Positions 4,388-52,251 of a stretch of 64,000 bases of DNA are shown here, one piece after another. The stretch is from NCBI GenBank assembly GCA_902492935.1, contig CABUNJ010000004.1, positions 38,589 through 102,588 of the forward strand. Direction: 5' to 3'. A program made the translations under genes and the position numbers. Below the pieces are notes generated by a model, which was not told the DNA's origin, did not search any database, and saw only the letters and a list, made by a program, of their open reading frames with translations. Source of the DNA: an uncultured Collinsella sp. Lineage in GTDB: Bacteria; Actinomycetota; Coriobacteriia; Coriobacteriales; Coriobacteriaceae. Each line of letters opens with the position of its first letter. Within the stretch, counting starts at the first letter, position 1.

Positions 4388-7411
<3,024 letters not shown>

Positions 7412-15252: not shown

Positions 15253-15306
15253 AGGTGAACGTTCACCTTTTGAGTTGCAATGGATTAGTATAGTGAACGT
15301 TCACCT
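15253..15306. promoter_or_regulatory. two AGGTGAACGTTCACCT operators upstream of uxaC
   Basis: A perfect 16-bp palindrome at 15253..15268 and AGTGAACGTTCACCT at 15292..15306. They flank TAGTATAGT. Confidence 0.65.
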
Positions 15307-37345: not shown

Positions 37346-37453
37346 TTCGTGTAGCTAAACATCTTTCGCCGAGTGCATCGCTCGGTACCCATTTACACCT
37401 GATTCATTAACCAACGATTGGTACAACCGTTCAAACCAAAAGAGGAGAGCATC

Positions 37454-39232
37454 ATGGACGAGAAAACCAAAGCACAGATTCAGCAGGAGGCCGCCGACCT
37501 GGTTGCCAAGCTGCAGCCGCGTTCTGGCAAGTTCCGCACCATCAGCCCCGAGATGGACCCGCTGCGCCTGGGCTCTGGCTGGAGCATCGAAGACCTGGAC
37601 AAGCCGCAGGTCATCATCGAGTCGACCTTTGGCGATTCGCACCCGGGTTCTGCCGGCCTGTTCGAGCTGGTCGAGGAGGTGCGCGCTGGCGTTGCCGAGG
37701 CTGGTGGCCACGGTGCCCGTTACTTCTGCACCGACATTTGCGACGGTGAGGCCCAGGGCCACGACGGCATCAACTACTCGCTGCCCAGCCGCGACATGAT
37801 CGCCAACATGATCGAGATCCACGCCAAGGCCACCCCGTTCGATGCCGGTGTCTTCGTTGCCAGCTGCGATAAGGGCCTGCCCGCGAACCTCATGGCCATG
37901 GGCCGCATCAACATCCCCTCCATCGTCGTCACCGGCGGCGTCATGGATGCCGGCCCCGACCTGCTGACCCTGGAGCAGCTCGGCGCCATCTCGGCCCGCT
38001 ATGAGCGCGGCGAGATCTCCCGCGAGGAGCTCGAGTTCGCCAAGCATAACGCCTGCCCCAGCTGCGGCGCCTGCTCCTTTATGGGCACCGCCTCGACCAT
38101 GCAGGTCACGGCTGAGGCCCTGGGCCTTATGCTTCCCGGTACCGCCCTGCTGCCCGCTACCAGCTCCGACCTGCGCGAGTTTGCCCGCGAGGCCGGCCGC
38201 CAGTCCGTGTGGCTCTCCGAGCACAACCTGTGCCCCCGCGACATCGTGACCAAGGAGTCCTTCGAGAACCTCATCATGGTCCACGGCGCCATTTCGGGCT
38301 CCACCAACTCGCTGCTGCACATTCCCGCGATCGCCCGCGAGTTTGGCATCGAGATGTCCGCCGACGACTTCGATCGTCTGCACCGTGGTGCCCACTACCT
38401 GCTCAACGTTCGTCCCGCAGGTGAGTGGCCGGCGCAGTTCTTCTACTATGCGGGCGGCGTGCCGCGCATCATGGAGGAGATCAAGTCGATGCTCCACCTC
38501 GATGTCATGACCGTCACCGGCAAGACCCTCGGCGAAAACCTCGAGGACCTTAAGAACAACGGCTACTACGAGAAGTGCGGTCGTTACCTTGAGAAATGGA
38601 ATCTCAAGCGCGAGGACATCATCCGTCCGTTTGACCAGGCTTTTGGTACCGATGGCTCCATCGCCATCCTCCACGGCAACCTTGCCCCCGAGGGCGCCGT
38701 CGTCAAGCACACGGTTGTTCCGCGCGAGATGTTCCAGGCCACGCTTAAGGCACGTCCGTTCGATTGCGAGGAGGACGCTATCCACGCCGTCCTGACGCAC
38801 GAGGTCAAGCCCGGCGATGCCGTTATCATTCGCTATGAGGGCCCCAAGGGTTCCGGTATGCCCGAGATGTTCTACACCACCGAGGCTATCGCCAGCGATC
38901 CCGAGCTGGGTGCGAGCATTGCCCTTATCACCGATGGCCGCTTCTCCGGCGCTTCCAAGGGCCCGGCTATCGGTCACGTTTCGCCCGAGGCTGCCGTGGG
39001 CGGTCCGATTGCCCTGATCGAGGAGGGCGACCTTATCCAGATCAACATCCCCGAGCGCTCGCTGTCCATCGTGGGCATCGCCGGTAAGGAGATGGAGCCG
39101 GCCGAGGTCGACGCCGTCCTGGCCGAGCGCCGAGCCGCTTGGAAGCCCAAGGCTAATCGCTATACCTCCGGCACGCTCAAGTTCTTTACCGAGCATGCAG
39201 TTTCCGCCATTCAGGGTGGCTACATGGAGTAG
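37454..39232 (+). CDS. IlvD/Edd family sugar-acid dehydratase
   Basis: ORF 37418..39232. ATG 37454 follows AAGAGGAGAG. CDGEAQG, SCDKGLP, ITDGRFSGAS motifs. Confidence 0.8.
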   Translation: MDEKTKAQIQQEAADLVAKLQPRSGKFRTISPEMDPLRLGSGWSIEDLDKPQVIIESTFGDSHPGSAGLFELVEEVRAGVAEAGGHGARYFCTDICDGEAQGHDGINYSLPSRDMIANMIEIHAKATPFDAGVFVASCDKGLPANLMAMGRINIPSIVVTGGVMDAGPDLLTLEQLGAISARYERGEISREELEFAKHNACPSCGACSFMGTASTMQVTAEALGLMLPGTALLPATSSDLREFAREAGRQSVWLSEHNLCPRDIVTKESFENLIMVHGAISGSTNSLLHIPAIAREFGIEMSADDFDRLHRGAHYLLNVRPAGEWPAQFFYYAGGVPRIMEEIKSMLHLDVMTVTGKTLGENLEDLKNNGYYEKCGRYLEKWNLKREDIIRPFDQAFGTDGSIAILHGNLAPEGAVVKHTVVPREMFQATLKARPFDCEEDAIHAVLTHEVKPGDAVIIRYEGPKGSGMPEMFYTTEAIASDPELGASIALITDGRFSGASKGPAIGHVSPEAAVGGPIALIEEGDLIQINIPERSLSIVGIAGKEMEPAEVDAVLAERRAAWKPKANRYTSGTLKFFTEHAVSAIQGGYME

Positions 39233-39482: not shown

Positions 39483-40574
39483 CTACAGTTCAACTTCCAG
39501 TTCGGCTTTGTGTTCGTAGAGGTAGTCGCGCATGTAGGGGATGGCAAATGAGACCTTGCCGTACGAAGGAGCCTCGATAATCGATTCTCTTAACAGGCGG
39601 CTGCGGACGGAGCTCACCTGTTGAGGCGTTTTGTTTAGGGCATCGGCAACCATGCTGCTCGAGCTCGTTTGCCCCAAAGACGCCATGCTCAGCAGATAAG
39701 CGATGCACGTGGGCGGAATGCGCTGCAGCGCGGGCTCAATCACCATGGCGCAGAAGCGTTCGCGTGCCGTTGCAATGCCGCGCTCGGCTTCTTCTTCTCC
39801 AATAATCGCTGTATGTGCGCGTCTCGCCAACTGCCATGCGTAGTATCCAACGAGTTGGATCATGAAAGGATAACCTTGCGTTGCCTCGGCAAGTTGGCCG
39901 GCAATACCTGGCTGCAACTCCATGCCAGACGCTTCAATGGTTTCCTCGAGGGAGTACGACACTTCGGTTACTGCCACAGCCTTCAGGTCAAAGGGGAGGG
40001 CACGGCGAAAAAACGCAAGTGTCTTTCCGTTGATGATGCTTTCAATCATCGAAGGCAGCCCCGCAAAAACAAAGGCGATATCAAGGTCTTCGCCGATAAC
40101 CTGCTGAATCGCAATGGAGAGCGTTCGGACCTCATCGAGCTCTGCGTCTTGAACCTCGTCGAGAGTGATGAGCAGGCCATTTCCATTCTTGGATATTGTC
40201 TGTCTCATGGCGTCGCGTAGCGATGGGCCGATTCGCTCAATGTCTATGCTGCCGATGGATATGCTAGCTACGGTGGGCTCAAATCTGGCGTGTTTGGCCT
40301 GGAATTTGGGCTGCAGCTGTTCGAGAATGCGCTGGCAAAGTCCCTCGGTTGCGACCTCTTTTATGACCGTCCAGCCACGGCTTTGCGCCAAACGTGAGCA
40401 CTCGTCAAGGAGGACCGTCTTGCCCGTTCCACGGACGCCGGCTATGCGCATTAGGCGCCCAGGGGCACCAGGCCCGTTGGTGAGGCCTTCACTGAATTCT
40501 TCAAGTACATCTTCGCGGCCGATAATCGTGGGAGGTGTTTTACCTGCTGTGGGCTTAAAAGGGTTTGTTTGCAT
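39483..40574 (-). CDS. stand-alone AAA/STAND-like ATPase with a C-terminal wHTH-like region
   Basis: Walker A GVRGTGKT, Walker B LLITLDEVQ. ATG 40574 follows AAAGGTGG. Visibly lower GC than its neighbours. Confidence 0.6.
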   Translation of the reverse strand: MQTNPFKPTAGKTPPTIIGREDVLEEFSEGLTNGPGAPGRLMRIAGVRGTGKTVLLDECSRLAQSRGWTVIKEVATEGLCQRILEQLQPKFQAKHARFEPTVASISIGSIDIERIGPSLRDAMRQTISKNGNGLLITLDEVQDAELDEVRTLSIAIQQVIGEDLDIAFVFAGLPSMIESIINGKTLAFFRRALPFDLKAVAVTEVSYSLEETIEASGMELQPGIAGQLAEATQGYPFMIQLVGYYAWQLARRAHTAIIGEEEAERGIATARERFCAMVIEPALQRIPPTCIAYLLSMASLGQTSSSSMVADALNKTPQQVSSVRSRLLRESIIEAPSYGKVSFAIPYMRDYLYEHKAELEVEL

Positions 40575-40594
40575 GTGAGCCACCTTTGCTCAAG

Positions 40595-40665: not shown

Positions 40666-41346
40666 CTATTTTCCAAATGCCGCGTGGATAAAGCGCTGGG
40701 CGAACAGCTTGTTGGCGACGTTGATGACATGGCCCAGGAACAGCGCCGAGATGGCGGTGGTCACGCCAAAGCCGCCCAGGTTGTGCATGAGCGCGAGCGA
40801 CAGAACGAGAGACACGGCGACATGCGAGCAGTCGAACACGACTTTTACGTCGCCAAAGCGGCGTTTAATCTTTTCGGCAATGACCTGCACCAGGCCGTCG
40901 GGCGCGTTGGGGACAACGCCCATGTTGACGACGAGACTTACGCCAAATGCAGTGACAGCGAGGGAGAGCAGCATGGTCGCAATCTGTGTGGGGAGTGCCG
41001 TGGGATGCAGTGGGTTGACCGCCGTGAAGAGGTCGGTCAAGCCGCCAATCAGCGTTGAGAAGAACAACTCGAGCAGGATGCGCGGCTGGAACTCGCTTCG
41101 CAAGATGGCTAATTGCGCCACGATGTAGGCGACGTAGGTTGCGGTGATCCAAAAGCCGAGCGTCTTGCCCGTGAGCATGGATAGGGTTGTGGCAAAGCAC
41201 GTGAGCGCGGCGACGCCCAGGCCGGATGCCGTCTGGAGACTCATACCGAGTGCCAGTACTGCAACGCCTACCAGATACATCAGCATTCTGATGACGGTAT
41301 GGCACCAGTCGATGTTCTCGCCATGCATGATGATGAGCGGTCGCAT
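40666..41346 (-). CDS. YczE/YitT-like integral membrane protein of unknown function
   Basis: 226 aa with about 6 hydrophobic segments. Confidence 0.55.
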   Translation of the reverse strand: MRPLIIMHGENIDWCHTVIRMLMYLVGVAVLALGMSLQTASGLGVAALTCFATTLSMLTGKTLGFWITATYVAYIVAQLAILRSEFQPRILLELFFSTLIGGLTDLFTAVNPLHPTALPTQIATMLLSLAVTAFGVSLVVNMGVVPNAPDGLVQVIAEKIKRRFGDVKVVFDCSHVAVSLVLSLALMHNLGGFGVTTAISALFLGHVINVANKLFAQRFIHAAFGK

Positions 41347-41378: not shown

Positions 41379-41506
41379 GCTGACCCGGGCCGGCAAAAGA
41401 GGGTTATCGGAGGCACTGCTGCAAAAGCAGAAAAGCCGGCCCCACGGTCAGTCGTCTAGGAAGTGTCTCGCTGTGCCGGAATGGGACTAAAGGTCCAACG
41501 AGACGG
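41379..41506 (-). promoter_or_regulatory. candidate structured 5' leader RNA (copy 1), paralogous to 45706..45838
   Basis: Shares invariant blocks GGTTATCGGAGGCACTGC (41402..41419) and CCGGAATGGGACT (41476..41488) with copy 2. The closing helix is followed by a U-run. Confidence 0.4.
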
Positions 41507-41525: not shown

Positions 41526-41583
41526 GCGTGGGCGATAAGATGCCAAGATGGTAGGGTGCGTCTTAGCATCCTATTGCCCACGC
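41526..41583 (-). promoter_or_regulatory. conserved 58-nt 5'-UTR hairpin (copy 1)
   Basis: 44/58 identical to 46987..47044. The differences fall in the stem and are compensated. Confidence 0.45.
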
Positions 41584-41586
41584 TCA

Positions 41587-41602
41587 ACGAAATCGGTTTC
41601 GT
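41587..41602. promoter_or_regulatory. ACGAAATCGGTTTCGT operator (KdgR-like LacI site)
   Basis: Same 16-mer as at the kdgK promoter. Sits just downstream (minus sense) of TATACT. Confidence 0.5.
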
Positions 41603-41703: not shown

Positions 41704-41737
41704 GTAGTCGATACGAAACCGATTTCGTATCGACTAC
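41704..41737. promoter_or_regulatory. 34-bp perfect-arm palindrome embedding ACGAAACCGATTTCGT
   Basis: GTAGTCGATACGAAA-CCGA-TTTCGTATCGACTAC. Confidence 0.55.
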
Positions 41738-41834: not shown

Positions 41835-42269
41835 ATGGAACAGCATACCGATTGCTCGTACTGCATGTGCGGGACCGACAACACGCTCGTCGATGCCTTT
41901 GGCATCCCCATGCTTGACCTGCCTGCCAGCAAGCTCATCTTGTTTAAGGAGCAGAGTCATAAGGGCCGCGTAATCGTGGCCTCCAAGCAGCACGTCGATG
42001 ACATCTCCTGCATGTCCGAGGAAGACGCCGCCGCCTTTATGGCCGATGTCCGCCACGTCGCGGCAGCGCTGCACAAGGCGTTCAATCCCGACAAGATTAA
42101 CTTTGGTGCCTATGGCGACACCATGCATCACCTGCACGTGCATATCGTCCCCAAGTACAAGGACGACCCGTTTGAGTTTGGTGACGTGTTTGCCATGAAC
42201 CCCGGTCGCGTCACGCTCGAGTCGGCTCAGTACGACGAGATCGCCCAGGCAATTGTCGCCAACCTGTAA
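41835..42269 (+). CDS. HIT family protein
   Basis: ORF 41658..42269. ATG 41835 follows GAAAGGA. Histidine triad HHLHVHIVP. N-terminal CSYCMC. Confidence 0.75.
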   Translation: MEQHTDCSYCMCGTDNTLVDAFGIPMLDLPASKLILFKEQSHKGRVIVASKQHVDDISCMSEEDAAAFMADVRHVAAALHKAFNPDKINFGAYGDTMHHLHVHIVPKYKDDPFEFGDVFAMNPGRVTLESAQYDEIAQAIVANL

Positions 42270-42335
42270 GCGAGTAAAAGCTGCTATTTCGAATAGAAGC
42301 ACTTGGCTTCATTGCCAGTTAAAAGGAGCTTATCT

Positions 42336-43670
42336 ATGAATGCAGGAGTTGTTTCACTCCTTTGGGTGCTGGTGGGCGTAGTCCTGCTGGTCGCCATGAT
42401 CGTTAAGTTTAAAATCAACAGCATCATTGCGCTTATTCTTTCCGCCATTTTTATCGCCCTTGCCGACGGCATCTCTGTGGGCGACCTTGTCACCACCATG
42501 GAAGATGGGCTGGGCGGAACGCTTAAGTCGCTTGCGCTGATCATTATCTTTGGCGCAGCCATCGGAAAACTGATGACCGATTCGGGTGCCTCACAGCAGA
42601 TTGCCGACACTATCGTTGACAAGCTCGGTATTAAGCTGCTGCCTGTTGCGCTTCTGATCATCGGCGTTATCTTTGGTATGAGCATGTTCTACGAGGTGGC
42701 GTTCCTTATCGTTACGCCGCTCGTTATCAGCATCGCCAAAGAGGCCGACATCCCCTATATGCGCCTGATTATCCCGGCTGTTTCTGGTACCACGATGGGC
42801 CATTCTCTTTTTCCGCCGCAGCCTGGTCCTATGGCGCTGGTGAGTGCCTTTGGTGCCGAGGTTCCGCCGGTCTACATCTTTGGTCTGATCGTCACGATTC
42901 CGACACTTATCTGCTCTGGTCTTTTGCTGTGCCATTTCATCCCCGGTCTCGATGACATGCCGCTTGGCAATGTTATGAAGCCGGCGGAGCGCAGGCCCGC
43001 GGACGAGCTTCCGCCGTTCTGGCTTTCCATTCTGGTGCCGCTGTTCCCGGCAATCATCATGATTGGGGCTTCGATTATCAAGAACACGGTGGGCGAGGGT
43101 TGCTTTGCATACGATCTTGCCAGCTGCATCGGTAGCGCAGATATCACTATGCTCATCACGATGATTCTTGCCATGGTTGCGTATGGTTATACGCGCGGCA
43201 TGGATGGCGGAGAGATCTCTAGCTCTATGTCCGATGCTATCAAGGACGTCGCGAACGTGCTGCTCGTTATCGGTGCCGGCGGCATCATGAAGCAGGTCAT
43301 CATTACTTCTGGCGTTGGCGCGACGCTTGCCGACATGGTGAGCCTCATGCCGGTGTCGCCGCTGATTTTGGCTTGGGTGATCACGGTGGTCCTGCGCCTG
43401 CTCACCGGCCAGGGTACCGTCTCGGCCATCACCGCCGCCGGCGTCGTGGCACCTATGGTTACGCAGTTTGGCATCAACCCGGTGCTTGCAGTACTGGTCT
43501 GCGCCTGCGCGTCCAATACCATCACGCCTATGTATGACGGCGGCTACCTGCTGTTCCAGCAGTCGTTTGGCCTGTCGATGAAGGATACCTATAAGACATG
43601 GGGCCTGTTGGAGCTCGTCAACTCCGTTGTCGGCCTCATCATGGTTCTGATCCTGAGCCTGTTTATCTAG
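42336..43670 (+). CDS. GntP family sugar-acid permease (second)
   Basis: ORF 42303..43670. ATG 42336 follows AAGGAG. GntP-like polytopic sequence. Confidence 0.8.
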   Translation: MNAGVVSLLWVLVGVVLLVAMIVKFKINSIIALILSAIFIALADGISVGDLVTTMEDGLGGTLKSLALIIIFGAAIGKLMTDSGASQQIADTIVDKLGIKLLPVALLIIGVIFGMSMFYEVAFLIVTPLVISIAKEADIPYMRLIIPAVSGTTMGHSLFPPQPGPMALVSAFGAEVPPVYIFGLIVTIPTLICSGLLLCHFIPGLDDMPLGNVMKPAERRPADELPPFWLSILVPLFPAIIMIGASIIKNTVGEGCFAYDLASCIGSADITMLITMILAMVAYGYTRGMDGGEISSSMSDAIKDVANVLLVIGAGGIMKQVIITSGVGATLADMVSLMPVSPLILAWVITVVLRLLTGQGTVSAITAAGVVAPMVTQFGINPVLAVLVCACASNTITPMYDGGYLLFQQSFGLSMKDTYKTWGLLELVNSVVGLIMVLILSLFI

Positions 43671-45013: not shown

Positions 45014-45655
45014 CTAGCCGCGGACCTTCTTGACGACGTCCATGGCCTCGCGGGCGATCTGCTCGACCTTGGAGAAGTCGCCGTCGGCAAACAGGGCCGG
45101 CTTGACCATCCAGGTGCCACCGCAGGCGATGATGGCGGAGGAGCTCAGGTACTCCTCGACGTTGGCGGTGCTCACGCCGCCGGTGGGCATAAAGCGGTGG
45201 CCGACAAACGGAGCGGCGAGGGCCTTGATGGTGTTCAGGCCGCCATACTGGGACGCGGGGAAGAACTTGGTGACCTTGAGGCCCAGGTTCTCGGCTGCGG
45301 TGACCTCGGAGGGGGTCACGGTGCCGGGAAGGACAGGCAGGTCGATATCGATGCAGTGCTTCACGACGTCCTCGTTGTAACCCGGGGAGACGATGAACTT
45401 GGCATCGGCTGCGCGGGCCTGCTCAACCTGCTCGACGGTCAGGACGGTGCCGGCGCCAACGCACATCTCGGGCTCGGCCTCGGCCATAGCGGCGATGCAC
45501 TCGGCGGCGCAGGCGGTGCGGAAGGTGACCTCGGCGGACTTCATGCCAGCTGCCATAAGGGCGTGGGCGAGCGGAGCGGCGTCCTCGACCTTGTCGAGCA
45601 CGACGACCGGCACGATACCCAGGGACTCAAGCGTGGTGTAGAACTGATCGAACAT
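45014..45655 (-). CDS. eda: KDPG / KHG aldolase
   Basis: ORF 45014..45700. ATG 45655 (MFDQFYTT) follows GAAAGGA. VPVVVLD, EVTFRT, GAGTV, KFFPA, GGV blocks. Confidence 0.88.
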   Translation of the reverse strand: MFDQFYTTLESLGIVPVVVLDKVEDAAPLAHALMAAGMKSAEVTFRTACAAECIAAMAEAEPEMCVGAGTVLTVEQVEQARAADAKFIVSPGYNEDVVKHCIDIDLPVLPGTVTPSEVTAAENLGLKVTKFFPASQYGGLNTIKALAAPFVGHRFMPTGGVSTANVEEYLSSSAIIACGGTWMVKPALFADGDFSKVEQIAREAMDVVKKVRG

Positions 45656-45705
45656 GATGTTCCTTTCGATGTGTGGCGCGCATGGGCGCGTGATTGCCAA
45701 ATGTG

Positions 45706-45838
45706 CTGGTCAGGAGCCGATTTTGGATTGGTTATCGGAGGCACTGCTTGGGGTTCAAGCAATTCCAAAACCGGCTGCTCGACCAGTCATGTAGGGAATG
45801 CCAGGCAAAACCGGAATGGGACTTGTGGTTTTGCCCGG
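45706..45838 (-). promoter_or_regulatory. candidate structured RNA element (copy 2) in the 253-nt kdgK-eda spacer
   Basis: Invariant blocks at 45730..45747 and 45811..45823. Helices differ from copy 1 but remain complementary. Confidence 0.4.
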
Positions 45839-45908
45839 CCGGAGGAATCGGGGAGTGGGCCGCAGGGGTATGGGATTGGAAAGCTGCGGCCCGCGGAATG
45901 GAGACGGA

Positions 45909-46943
45909 CTAGCGCGCGACGCGGGTGCCACCGTCGGCGGCGGATGCCACGGCGGCGATCTCGTCAGCGGTCACCAAGTTGGAATCGCCCTTGATGGTGA
46001 GCTTGAGGATCGAGGCTGCAATCGCGTAGTTGACGGCGTCCTGCGGGTCAAAGTCGTTGATGAGGGCATGGACGAGGCCGGCGTTGAAAGCGTCGCCGGC
46101 GGCAACGCCCTCGAGCACGTGCACGTCGTGAGCAGGGGAGAACCAGTGCTCGCCGCTCTCGGCGTCAAAGAGCATGCCCATCCAGATGGAGCGCTCGACG
46201 CAGGAGATGTTGCGGACGACCGAGGCGACCTTCTTGCAGCCGTACTCGGCGCAGATCTGGCGGGCCATCTCGACGTAGGTGTCGCGCTCCTCGATGCCGT
46301 GGGCAAGGGAGCCAGAGACGCAGGTCATGCCGAGGCCGGCAGGCGCGTCCTCGTCATTGGCGATGCAGATGTCGACGAGCGGCAGGAGTTCCTTCATGGT
46401 GGCCTGCGACTTCTCGGGCGACCACATCTTGCCGCGATAATTCACGTCGCACACGGTCGTGATGCCCTTGGCGCGGCAGGCGGTGAGGGCATCCTTGCAG
46501 GCGGCAGCCATCTCATCGGAGACGGCGGGCGTCACGCCGGAGAAATAGAAGACATCGATGCCCTTGAGGATCTCGTCCCAGTCAAAGACATCGCGCTTGG
46601 CCATGTTGATGGCAGAGTACTTGCGGTCGTAGACGCAGCCGTTACCGCGCTGCGAGGCACCGACCTCAAACACATAGGAGCCAAGGCGGTCGCCCTGACG
46701 CACGACGCGCGTGGTGTCGACGCCGTAGGCCTTCAGCGAGCGCAGCGCGCACTCGCCCAGACGGTTGGCCGGGACAACGGAGACGTAAGCGGCCTTGTCG
46801 CCCTGGTAGGCCAGGGAAAGCGCGGTGTTTGCCTCGGCGCCGCCGTAGCGGACATCAAACTCGGTCGCCTGCTCAATGCGCAGGTGGTCTTTGGGCGATA
46901 GCCTCATCATGATCTCGCCGAAGGTAAGAACCGTTTTACCCAT
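45909..46943 (-). CDS. kdgK: 2-dehydro-3-deoxygluconokinase (PfkB family)
   Basis: ORF 45909..47048. ATG 46943 (MGKTVLTFGE) follows GAAGGAG. PfkB motifs GGAEAN and DxxGAGDAF. Confidence 0.82.
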   Translation of the reverse strand: MGKTVLTFGEIMMRLSPKDHLRIEQATEFDVRYGGAEANTALSLAYQGDKAAYVSVVPANRLGECALRSLKAYGVDTTRVVRQGDRLGSYVFEVGASQRGNGCVYDRKYSAINMAKRDVFDWDEILKGIDVFYFSGVTPAVSDEMAAACKDALTACRAKGITTVCDVNYRGKMWSPEKSQATMKELLPLVDICIANDEDAPAGLGMTCVSGSLAHGIEERDTYVEMARQICAEYGCKKVASVVRNISCVERSIWMGMLFDAESGEHWFSPAHDVHVLEGVAAGDAFNAGLVHALINDFDPQDAVNYAIAASILKLTIKGDSNLVTADEIAAVASAADGGTRVAR

Positions 46944-46986
46944 GGTCGCGTAGCTCCTTCTTGCTCGTGCGTACACCTTTGATATG

Positions 46987-47044
46987 GCGTTGGCACGCAG
47001 GTGCCAAGACGGTAGGGTGCGTCTTTGCACCTGCGTGCCAACGC
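46987..47044 (-). promoter_or_regulatory. conserved 58-nt 5'-UTR hairpin (copy 2)
   Basis: Perfect basal stem GGCACGCAGGTGC/GCACCTGCGTGCC. The apical part is identical to copy 1. Confidence 0.45.
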
Positions 47045-47047
47045 TCA

Positions 47048-47076
47048 CCGAAATCGGTTTACGAAATCGGTTTCGT
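47048..47076. promoter_or_regulatory. two overlapping (A)CGAAATCGGTTT(A/C)CG operators at the kdgK promoter
   Basis: CCGAAATCGGTTTACG at 47048..47063 and ACGAAATCGGTTTCGT at 47061..47076. TATACT (minus sense) at 47087..47092. Confidence 0.55.
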
Positions 47077-47178
47077 TTCGAGTTGTAGTATACTCACCTA
47101 CAGCGTTTTGCAACCGAGATTTTTAAAAAAATGCCTAAAATGGCTCAGATCGCCGACAATTGGGAAACGGGGTGCGTT

Positions 47179-48201
47179 ATGGCGCAGATGAGAATCAAGG
47201 ACATTGCCGCCGAGGCGGGCGTGAGCCCGGCCACGGTCTCGCGCTATCTCAACAACCGCCCCGGGCAAATGACCGAGGAAACCCGTGCTCGCATCGCGGC
47301 GGTTATCGAGCGCACCGGCTATCGCCCGCGTGCCGCCGCGCGCAATCTACGCAGCTCGCGCACCAACCTCATCGGCGTGATCCTGGCCGACATCGCCAAC
47401 CCGTTCTCGAGCGCCATGCTCGAAGGGCTTTCCGCCAGTGCCGCCGCGCGCGGCTGCTCGCTCATGACGGCCATTAGCGGCAACGACCCCGCAAAGGAAG
47501 TTGAGTCGCTCACCAGACTTATCGATGCCGGTGTGGACGGCCTGGTCGTCAACACCTGCGGAGGCAATGACGAGGCGATCGCCGCGGCAGCGGGACGCCT
47601 GCCCGTCGTGCTGCTCGACCGCGATGTTGTCGACGGCGGTGTTGACCTGGTGACATCTAACAACCGCGAGCTGGTCGCCGGCTTGGTAGACGCCTTGGCC
47701 GCCGCTGGTAGCGAGCGCCTGTGCCTGCTCACCGAGGCAAGCGACGACAGCCCCGTGCGTCGAGAGCGCGCCGAGGCCTTTGCCGACGAGCTTTCGCGCC
47801 GCGGCCTTGCAGGCGAGGTCGTTACCCTGGCCGACGGTGGCGCCACGGGCGTTGGTCGCTTAGACGAGGCCATCCGCGACTATGCGGGCAAAAAACTCGG
47901 CCTCATTGCTGTCAACGGCCTGGTCTTCCTGCGTCTGACCGAGGCACTGGCGCAGCTTGGTCCCTCGCTGCCGGCGGGGCTCAAGATCGCGACGTTTGAC
48001 GACTACCCCTGGAACCATGTGCTCTTTGGCGGCGTGACCACGGCCGCGCAAGACACCCTCACCATTGCCGAGCGCGTAGTCGAGCGCCTCTCCGAGCGCA
48101 TCGACGTTGTTACCACCACCGTGGGCGAGGCCGCAAAGCTCGCCCCCAAGCGCATCGAGGTCCCCGGCCACATCGAACACCGCGCCTCGACCTCGCGCTA
48201 G
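47179..48201 (+). CDS. LacI family regulator (KdgR-like by position)
   Basis: ORF 47131..48201. HTH IKDIAAEAGVSPATVSRYLN. Divergent from kdgK-eda. Confidence 0.8.
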   Translation: MAQMRIKDIAAEAGVSPATVSRYLNNRPGQMTEETRARIAAVIERTGYRPRAAARNLRSSRTNLIGVILADIANPFSSAMLEGLSASAAARGCSLMTAISGNDPAKEVESLTRLIDAGVDGLVVNTCGGNDEAIAAAAGRLPVVLLDRDVVDGGVDLVTSNNRELVAGLVDALAAAGSERLCLLTEASDDSPVRRERAEAFADELSRRGLAGEVVTLADGGATGVGRLDEAIRDYAGKKLGLIAVNGLVFLRLTEALAQLGPSLPAGLKIATFDDYPWNHVLFGGVTTAAQDTLTIAERVVERLSERIDVVTTTVGEAAKLAPKRIEVPGHIEHRASTSR

Positions 48202-52081: not shown

Positions 52082-52123
52082 AGAGGGGCTGTCCCACCAA
52101 CGCGGGACAGCCCCTCTTTTCTT
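52082..52123 (+). terminator. intrinsic terminator
   Basis: AGAGGGGCTGTCCC / GGGACAGCCCCTCT stem followed by TTTTCTT. Confidence 0.8.
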
Positions 52124-52251
52124 ATTGATCCGTTGGGGACGGAGGAAAACGGATCATTTTGAGCTGGCGAAGGACTTGCCTCGGAAGGGGCTGCCGATTC
52201 GGTGCGGTTTGAGACCGCTATTCGGCCCTATCGTGACCGGTGGTACTCTAG

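Follow-up and report, generated by a model that had tools for sequence, protein, structure and literature searches.

Control of sugar-acid and hexuronate pathways is textbook repressor biology. In the hexuronate and gluconate regulons of Escherichia coli and Bacillus, kdgK and eda are controlled by KdgR-type (LacI- or IclR-family) and GntR-type repressors. Sugar phosphates can also be read by RNA, as the glmS ribozyme-riboswitch senses glucosamine-6-phosphate, and we know of no riboswitch for sugar acids or for intermediates of the Entner-Doudoroff and hexuronate pathways. A search of the full-text literature found no riboswitch or RNA motif tied to eda, kdgK, 2-keto-3-deoxygluconate (KDG), its 6-phosphate (KDPG) or the DUF6198/YczE membrane-protein family. 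Here we describe a structured RNA element of about 130 nt that is attached to these genes in the gut genus Collinsella. It occurs exactly twice, on the mRNA (minus) strand, in a stretch of 64,000 nt (64 kb) from an uncultured Collinsella sp. (contig CABUNJ010000004.1, positions 38,589 to 102,588; hereafter the window), once between kdgK and eda (copy A) and once in the 5′ untranslated region (UTR) of a gene for a DUF6198/YczE-like membrane protein (copy B). We are highly confident that this structured RNA is functional and regulates in cis. It represents a new family within a known kind, that of orphan riboswitch-like leaders, and its distribution is narrow.

Sets of orphan riboswitch candidates and cis-regulatory RNAs have been assembled by comparative genomics (Weinberg et al., 2010, PMC2864571; Weinberg et al., 2017, PMC5737381). 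Like those candidates, the present element is a leader of about 130 nt with covarying helices, invariant nucleotides in a loop, a linker and a bulge, and a fixed site before related genes; unlike them, it is found in one genus, its invariant positions are pyrimidine-rich, and it is linked to keto-deoxy sugar-acid catabolism. The Collinsella-1 RNA (RF01700), listed as not cis-regulatory (PMC2864571), comes from the same genus and habitat (Actinobacteria, human gut) and was likewise found by comparative genomics only, whereas our element is gene-linked and in mRNA sense, and the RF01700 model has no match to either copy at E ≤ 10. If the ligand were a phosphorylated sugar acid such as KDPG, glmS would be the nearest functional precedent, as a leader reading its pathway's sugar-phosphate intermediate; unlike glmS, the element has no Rfam match, shows no evidence of self-cleavage and consists of two hairpins in which no nested pseudoknots were detected. 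With KdgR/GntR-type control it shares the target genes, and a LacI-family gene and three identical palindromic operators are present at the locus. That control, however, works by protein-DNA contact at transcription initiation, whereas here an RNA structure is involved that lies downstream of the operators and, in copy A, inside the operon.

A reading of this DNA made earlier from the letters alone (the sequence-only reading) had proposed a riboswitch-like element that could be matched to no known class. Rfam 15, whose 4227 models include Collinsella-1, the T-box, known riboswitches and ribozymes, indeed gives no match at either copy or at divergent variants of the element. Scans at E ≤ 10 returned at both copies only chance matches to miRNA and snoRNA models, none of them above 15 bits. 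The divergent elements of two other loci (L140 and L141, see below) gave no match. At gathering thresholds, the scan of the window yielded only the aspS RNA (RF02930; 823-906, plus strand; 76.1 bits against a gathering score of 42.5), the sole Rfam family in the window.

Two copies with a common fold

The kdgK gene (PfkB family; 45909..47048, minus strand) and eda (start 45655, minus strand; Pfam KDPG aldolase match, 5.8e-65) are separated by 253 nt, the spacer length given in the sequence-only reading and confirmed from the gene coordinates. The element had been placed at 45706-45838; the location is right but the extent somewhat short, as the core of copy A spans 45706..45839 (minus strand, 134 nt) and is accompanied by flanking parts. 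The paralogue reported upstream of a YczE-like gene is copy B, whose core of 125 nt occupies 41380..41504 (minus strand) in the 5′ UTR of the DUF6198 gene (41346..40666, minus strand; Pfam DUF6198 match, 4.2e-16), about 4.3 kb beyond eda. A covariance model built from 79 distinct sequences matches copy A with 155.7 bits (E 2e-36) and copy B with 105.7 bits (E 3e-24). Searched with this model, filters off too, the window contains nothing real beyond these two copies, and a second, more general model used without filters found no third copy type in it. A 22.7-bit match at 52083-52153 (plus strand) is an ordinary intrinsic terminator (GAGGGGCUGUCCC...GGGACAGCCCCUC followed by UUUUCUU) unrelated to the element.

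The shared blocks on which the earlier proposal was built are real. The long block, CAGTGCCTCCGATAACC, occurs exactly twice in the 64 kb, at 45730-45746 and 41402-41418 (both minus strand), and this 17-mer has only those two sites even if 3 mismatches are allowed (0.09 matches expected); the 13-nt block, AGTCCCATTCCGG, is exact at 45811-45823 and 41476-41488 (both minus strand). These blocks belong to a fold of four helices, in which a hairpin (P1) is followed by a 13-nt linker and then by a long interrupted hairpin (P2-P2a-P3). P1 has 13 positions per side and closes a 14-nt loop (L1) whose end is the invariant AGUCCCAUUCC, and the linker has the consensus AYYYCCYAnAnGR. P2 consists of 6 bp and is continued, across a small internal loop, by P2a of 8 bp (13 bp in the eda-type copies) and P3 of 4-8 bp, the end of whose 3′ strand is a conserved GCAG. 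Between the 3′ strands of P3 and P2a there is an invariant bulge, G(C)AGUGCCUCCGAUAACC, also spelled (G)UGCCUCCGAUAACC or GUGCCUCCGAUAACC. Three pyrimidine-rich single strands are thus essentially invariant: AGUCCCAUUCC in the P1 loop, the linker, and the bulge (block GCCUCCGAUAACC).

In copy A (minus strand throughout), P1 is formed by 45839-45827 and 45812-45800 around the loop ACAAGUCCCAUUCC (45826-45813), and the linker AUUCCCUACAUGA (45799-45787) leads to P2 (45786-45781 with 45711-45706), P2a (45776-45764 with 45727-45715) and P3 (45763-45756 with 45750-45743), the 3′ bulge being GCCUCCGAUAACCAA (45742-45728). All four helices are in its minimum free energy (MFE) structure, which has z = -5.6 against shuffles. 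In copy B, again on the minus strand, the corresponding parts are P1 (41504-41492 with 41477-41465), L1 (41491-41478), the linker (41464-41452), P2 (41451-41446 with 41385-41380), P2a (41442-41435 with 41394-41387), P3 (41430-41427 with 41419-41416) and the bulge together with a U-rich strand, UGCCUCCGAUAACCCUCUUUU (41415-41395). Its MFE structure is the same fold, which is supported by the consensus fold of 23 B-type sequences.

The helices named in the sequence-only reading are all present, and the copies differ there by compensatory changes, although one detail had to be amended. For the small hairpin of copy B, CUGC[UUUUGCA]GCAG is a better reading than the register given, because it pairs the conserved GCAG and because this register is kept in other lineages (CUGCC/GGCAG, CUGCUU/AAGCAG). 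The segment CACACAWC(C)GAAAGGA near the ribosome-binding site (RBS), described as shared, is common to both copies but lies outside the conserved core: several lineages have lost CACACA, and CCGAAAGGA is no more than the RBS of eda, which is also present in relatives without the element.

Covariation and the functional strand

Invariant single-stranded blocks had been read as standing among covarying helices, and this description proved correct: pairing and double changes exceed both shuffle and slid controls. In 82 distinct model-aligned sequences, 93.5% of cells are standard-paired, compared with 24-46% after sliding the 3′ partners by 1-3 columns, and 15/40 pairs have changed on both sides. 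In a set of 41 distinct sequences that includes two divergent lineages, 90.9% of cells are paired against 24-45% in the slid controls; 19/40 pairs show changes on both sides, a number reached by 0/500 shuffles, and there are 47 further pair types, reached by 4/500. These figures come from an alignment fitted to the model, and many changes are shared by descent, so that about seven effective independent lineages are represented. The extension of P2a exemplifies this, with the variants UUUUGGA/UCCAAAA, UUCCGAA/UCCGGAA and CCCGUGA/UCACGGG. Between copies A and B themselves, most helix positions differ and pairing is retained. The same pair pattern was already visible in a MAFFT alignment made before any model.

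G-U pairs are frequent (GU:40 at model pair 71-123, GU:39 at 4-39, UG:54 at 80-99) and would be A-C on the opposite strand, and reverse-strand model scores reach only 25-35 bits. Together, these two observations identify the mRNA strand as the functional one. A structured RNA on the mRNA strand, with two paralogues and of no known class, is therefore supported, while 'riboswitch' stays a candidate label. None of the three outcomes that the sequence-only reading had named as refuting it was obtained.

Distribution, gene association and history

When each GTDB species, represented by a single genome, was scanned with a two-block pattern, at least 120 stretches with the element were found. Among the matches listed, all come from Collinsella or Coriobacteriaceae except for a few labelled 'uncultured bacterium' and one 'Sodaliphilus' bin contig; the restriction to Collinsella is read from these matches, and absence elsewhere is not proven thereby. 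The exceptional contig (L126, CAVKNR010000125.1), which is 4.2 kb long, bears the element and is filed under a Sodaliphilus (Bacteroidota) metagenome-assembled genome, is most likely a mis-binned Collinsella contig. The stretches fall into two size classes, with a core of 134-135 nt (type A) or 125-127 nt (type B), and sub-lineages A′, B′ and B″ differ in the helices. Among the matches listed, all 148 testable copies precede eda (type A) or the DUF6198 gene (type B) in gene orientation; where there was enough flank, an eda start follows 92 type A copies and a DUF6198 start follows 51 type B copies, and three 'other' cases are eda or DUF6198 genes with a point change at the start codon. No third copy type was found in about 0.6 Mb (72/~120 Collinsella loci) to 0.9 Mb of Collinsella loci. 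Two metagenome scans, with patterns requiring K after GATAACC or R after CCGG so as to leave out types A and B of Collinsella, gave 0 matches and 4 chance matches, these patterns being strict and each covering half the possibilities. Distant homologues with exact blocks seem rare.

How far does the element reach among related loci? When eda loci of decreasing similarity were compared by model search, homologous elements appeared in the kdgK-eda spacers of many Collinsella species, including two divergent lineages. In these two loci, whose Eda proteins are 86-88% identical, the spacer carries a divergent copy (L140, 5838-5969, 87.6 bits; L141, 5852-5986, 50.9 bits) in which the two invariant blocks match exactly but the helices differ, the P2a extension being CCCGUGA/UCACGGG and not UUUUGGA/UCCAAAA. 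Neither locus has a DUF6198 copy, so the eda-type copy is probably the older. At 82% (L139) and 73-79% (L135-L138) Eda identity there is no copy, filters off too, and the best score in these spacers, 17 bits, belongs to an unrelated hairpin. Two of these relatives (L135 and L137) have a compact kdgK-eda-DUF6198-SDR operon, with spacers of 44 nt and 3 nt. The DUF6198 homologues of Enorma and other relatives have no element upstream, and they lie behind short spacers within hexuronate/pectin operons, where their neighbours (L003-L010, L135, L137) include kdgK, eda, kduD-like SDR, GH88, oligogalacturonate-lyase-like and uxuA/uxuB-type genes. Because they share operons and hexuronate clusters in the relatives, eda and the DUF6198 gene can be regarded as partners in one pathway, and the neighbourhood suggests for the DUF6198/YczE family a role in the transport of a uronate-derived keto-deoxy acid. 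From these comparisons, the element appears to have arisen within Collinsella and to have been duplicated when the kdgK-eda-DUF6198 operon split.

On the opposite strand, between eda and the DUF6198 gene, are genes for a GntR/FCD regulator, a GntP permease and a HIT protein; the DUF6198 protein itself has database relatives that are 96-98% identical, one of them from Collinsella aerofaciens, and the window belongs to an aerofaciens-like genome. The gntP and HIT genes (window 41835-43670) are absent from many other Collinsella genomes (compare L016, 2332-3676), and in many such genomes copies A and B are about 2.2 kb apart instead of the 4.3 kb seen in the window. This segment is a lineage-specific insertion, adjoining a gene for an ILVD/EDD-family dehydratase (37355..39196). 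Directly 3′ of the DUF6198 gene, aerofaciens-type genomes have a gene for an AAA_16 ATPase (window 39483-40583, minus strand), in whose place the relatives have an SDR gene.

Flanking parts and transcriptional setting

In every case a distance of 17-41 nt separates the element from the downstream Shine-Dalgarno (SD) sequence of eda or the DUF6198 gene. In the window (minus strand), the RBS of eda, GAAAGGA at 45667-45661, lies 40 nt downstream of P2 of copy A and is followed by the start codon at 45655-45653; the RBS of the DUF6198 gene, also GAAAGGA (41364-41358, with the start codon at 41346-41344), is 17 nt downstream of P2 of copy B. Immediately 5′ of P1 in copy A there is a pyrimidine tract, UCCCCGAUUCCUCCG (45840..45854, minus strand), a candidate anti-SD partner. 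In all lineages, a YCYCC tract directly precedes P1 and a U/C-rich tract follows P2; either can pair with the SD, in registers that differ by lineage, and composition alone would give some pairing. In the centroid fold of copy A, UCCU pairs with the SD.

Further hairpins flank the cores. Directly after the kdgK stop, GCGGGCCGCAG ... CUGCGGCCCAC (45855..45894, minus strand) forms a hairpin with a C-rich loop of CCCAUAC repeats, and its consensus fold shows a compensatory pair (CG:10, UA:8). As aerofaciens-type copies have this hairpin but L140/L141 lack it, it is an accessory and not part of the core. In one Collinsella locus (L024, 348-621) its loop has one extra CCCAUAC unit, and so behaves like a short tandem repeat. 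The segment between copy A and the eda SD (45668..45705, minus strand) contains a G+C hairpin, CGCGC-CCAU-GCGCG, with no U tail, and is also lineage-specific, being absent in L140/L141. Upstream of copy B, the 5′ UTR forms a hairpin of 18 positions (17 pairs, 1 mismatch), GGCAAUAGGAUGCUAAGA ... UCUUGGCAUCUUAUCGCC (41531..41578, minus strand), which has compensatory changes in the consensus fold (UA:18/CG:3; GC:12/GU:5/AU:3), with its G-U pairs in mRNA sense. In L056 (2295-2350) the 5′ arm and loop of this hairpin are inverted, which looks like a flip or rearrangement of the stretch that the inverted repeats enclose.

Transcription of both units is apparently addressed by one repressor. A 16-bp palindrome of the LacI-operator type, ACGAAAYCGRTTTCGT, has three exact sites in the window, and at least 4 matches with up to 3 mismatches are given by 0/100 shuffles. 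One site (47061..47076) lies between kdgK (start 47048) and the divergent gene of a LacI-family regulator (47131..48201). A second, ACGAAATCGGTTTCGT (41587..41602), is just downstream of a promoter-like site for the DUF6198 transcript, which carries copy B (TTCGCA-16-TATACT, 41639-41612, minus strand), and the third (41713..41728) is on the HIT-gntP side of the divergent intergenic region between the DUF6198 and HIT-gntP genes. The LacI-family gene likely encodes the repressor for this operator set, which probably also controls HIT-gntP. The same operator on both element-bearing transcripts points to one repressor regulon, in which the RNA would be a second regulatory layer with a separate input. 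The kdgK-eda spacer contains no promoter-like site, so copy A is probably co-transcribed with kdgK. Another palindrome, GTGAACGTTCAC, is exact at window positions 15255, 15293, 20184, 35002 and 41658, with five near matches besides (10 matches with 2 mismatches allowed, where 2.6 are expected); many of its sites are paired at a distance of about 40 nt. It stands upstream of kdgK in L135 as well (5846-5857), and looks like a second operator type, LacI/CcpA-like, across the sugar-utilisation region.

A candidate riboswitch and its rivals

What does the element sense, if it senses anything? We favour, tentatively and at slightly less than an even chance, a metabolite riboswitch, as an orphan candidate restricted to Collinsella. 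A small molecule from the KDG/KDPG branch would be received in a pocket, or on a docking surface, made by the invariant loop, linker and bulge. The most logical ligand would be KDPG, as the substrate of Eda and the meeting point of the hexuronate and gluconate routes, which is harmful on accumulation, as is known from the physiology of E. coli; KDG or an unsaturated-uronate product would be alternatives. Occupancy would alter how translation of the downstream gene is initiated, likely by changing whether the GAAAGGA RBS is paired, be it with the pyrimidine tract 5′ of P1 or with the U/C-rich one 3′ of P2, and ligand-dependent tertiary docking of the P1 loop, linker and bulge may shift an SD/anti-SD helix that closes the junction. 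Both eda and the membrane-protein gene would thus gain metabolite-level control on top of the repressor. The most specific version, a first keto-deoxy sugar-acid riboswitch whose pocket binds KDPG, KDG or the unsaturated-uronate product and which switches on the aldolase and a DUF6198 transporter, is unlikely as it stands.

Several findings weigh against a metabolite riboswitch. Consensus folds and a terminator scan revealed no conserved terminator/antiterminator and no clearly covarying helix that sequesters the SD; in the consensus scan, neither 45600-46000 nor copy B has a terminator-like site. With about 45-66 nt enclosed by it, the P2-P2a stem does not resemble an intrinsic terminator, and the U-rich stretch after P2 varies (CUUUUU in copy B of the window, CCCAAUUCC, CACAUUUGG), so that the U-run of copy B is not conserved. 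ViennaRNA places the four helices in the MFE structure of 11/11 representatives already, and enforcing them leaves the unpaired probability of the SD unchanged at 0.2-0.5. The 54 unpaired positions include 22 C against 6 G, the invariant strands are C/U-rich and G-poor, and no complementary partner for the invariant segments was found inside the element; such pyrimidine-rich, partnerless strands fit a trans-acting factor about as well as a small-molecule pocket. In addition, most of the covariation rests on few lineages (A, A′, B, B′, B″, L140 and L141), and the element is confined to a single genus, each locus sampled having one or two copies. Exact block patterns were used to collect the sequences, which inflates how invariant the blocks look; the sole block-adjacent changes seen, C to U in the loop and C to U in the bulge, come from three distinct copies that only the model detected.

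A search by eye for pseudoknots or partners of the invariant blocks, in the element and its flanks, turned up short or lineage-specific matches only: GACUG/CAGUC overlaps P2, GGAAU/AUUCC exists in type A only, CGAU/AUCG only where the RBS reads AUCG, and none of these candidates is conserved. A small open reading frame of 22 codons running through P1 of copy B (AUGCCAUUUG...) was rejected, as other lineages have CUG in place of its AUG or lack it, and as there are 1-nt indels. A CAGUG reminiscent of an iron-responsive element was rejected too, since it lies within the covariation-supported P3 strand and not in an apical loop.

The best surviving rival, possible though on the unlikely side, takes the same RNA as a binding platform for a trans-acting macromolecule that controls translation of eda and the DUF6198 gene. 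The partner could be a protein for C/U-rich single strands (KH, cold-shock, S1-type or Rho) or a G/A-rich small RNA (for example one containing GGAAUGGGAC or GGUUAUCGGAGG). It would account for invariant unpaired segments that are pyrimidine-rich, G-poor and without an internal partner, and for a modelled fold that is stable without any ligand, and related motifs occur near copy A (CCAUUCCGCG after the kdgK stop, the CCCAUAC repeats, and CCUCC 5′ of P1). However, no gene for an RNA-binding protein is linked to the element in any of the gene contexts observed (the neighbours are LacI, GntR, gntP, HIT, AAA_16, SDR and rpiB), the 9-mer CCCATTCCG is not enriched in the window (18 against 19.6 expected), and no sequence complementary to the blocks is found there. 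Strictly kept blocks of 13-18 nt in a precise three-dimensional scaffold are, moreover, more typical of aptamers than of Rho or S1 sites.

Decidedly less likely is a constitutive device without sensing, which might govern RNA processing or stability, act as a translational insulator or standby site, or attenuate in a Rho-dependent manner; it would set the eda:kdgK expression ratio and stabilise the DUF6198 mRNA. The intercistronic position of copy A in a spacer with no promoter-like site, the stable hairpins that flank both copies, the C/G ratio of 1.83 in the spacer, which is like that of a Rho utilisation (rut) site, and the lack of any predicted switch would all suit such a device. The comparison with rut sites extends to the C-rich unpaired positions, but most of the RNA is in stable helices, and neither stabiliser hairpins nor rut sites need invariant loops and bulges of 13-18 nt amid rewritten helices. 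One device would also have to serve in both a 5′ UTR and an intercistronic spacer, while relatives manage with spacers of 3-44 nt.

A functionless recent repeat or mobile-element remnant, or a plus-strand or DNA-level unit, is very improbable and already largely refuted: the narrow taxonomic range, the two copies within 4.3 kb and the chance that copy B derives from a duplicated eda leader including its RBS would agree with it, whereas most helix positions differ between the copies yet still pair, position and orientation are the same in 148/148 of the matches listed, only two copies exist in 64 kb with no transposase, terminal repeats or integrase nearby, and a plus-strand reading would turn the G-U pairs into A-C mismatches and leave scores of 25-35 bits. 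Two particular kinds of such units were rejected: a repetitive extragenic palindrome or miniature inverted-repeat transposable element, by the two copies in 64 kb (filters off) and only two gene-linked types in about 0.6 Mb of Collinsella loci, and an attC-like or other DNA-level element, for which both an integrase and an inverse core site are lacking and against which the G-U pairs favour RNA.

Implications

The generality of the element is limited by its narrow distribution. Even with a protein or RNA partner, it would provide a compact test case, with a defined scaffold and three invariant pyrimidine-rich strands. If sensing of KDPG or KDG proved true, it would add a new ligand class to riboswitch chemistry and would explain why the compact kdgK-eda-DUF6198 operon was divided in Collinsella into units that are tuned separately. 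A functional handle on the uncharacterised DUF6198/YczE membrane-protein family would also be gained, in a genus that is abundant in the human gut and of interest for its growth on dietary pectin and host uronates.

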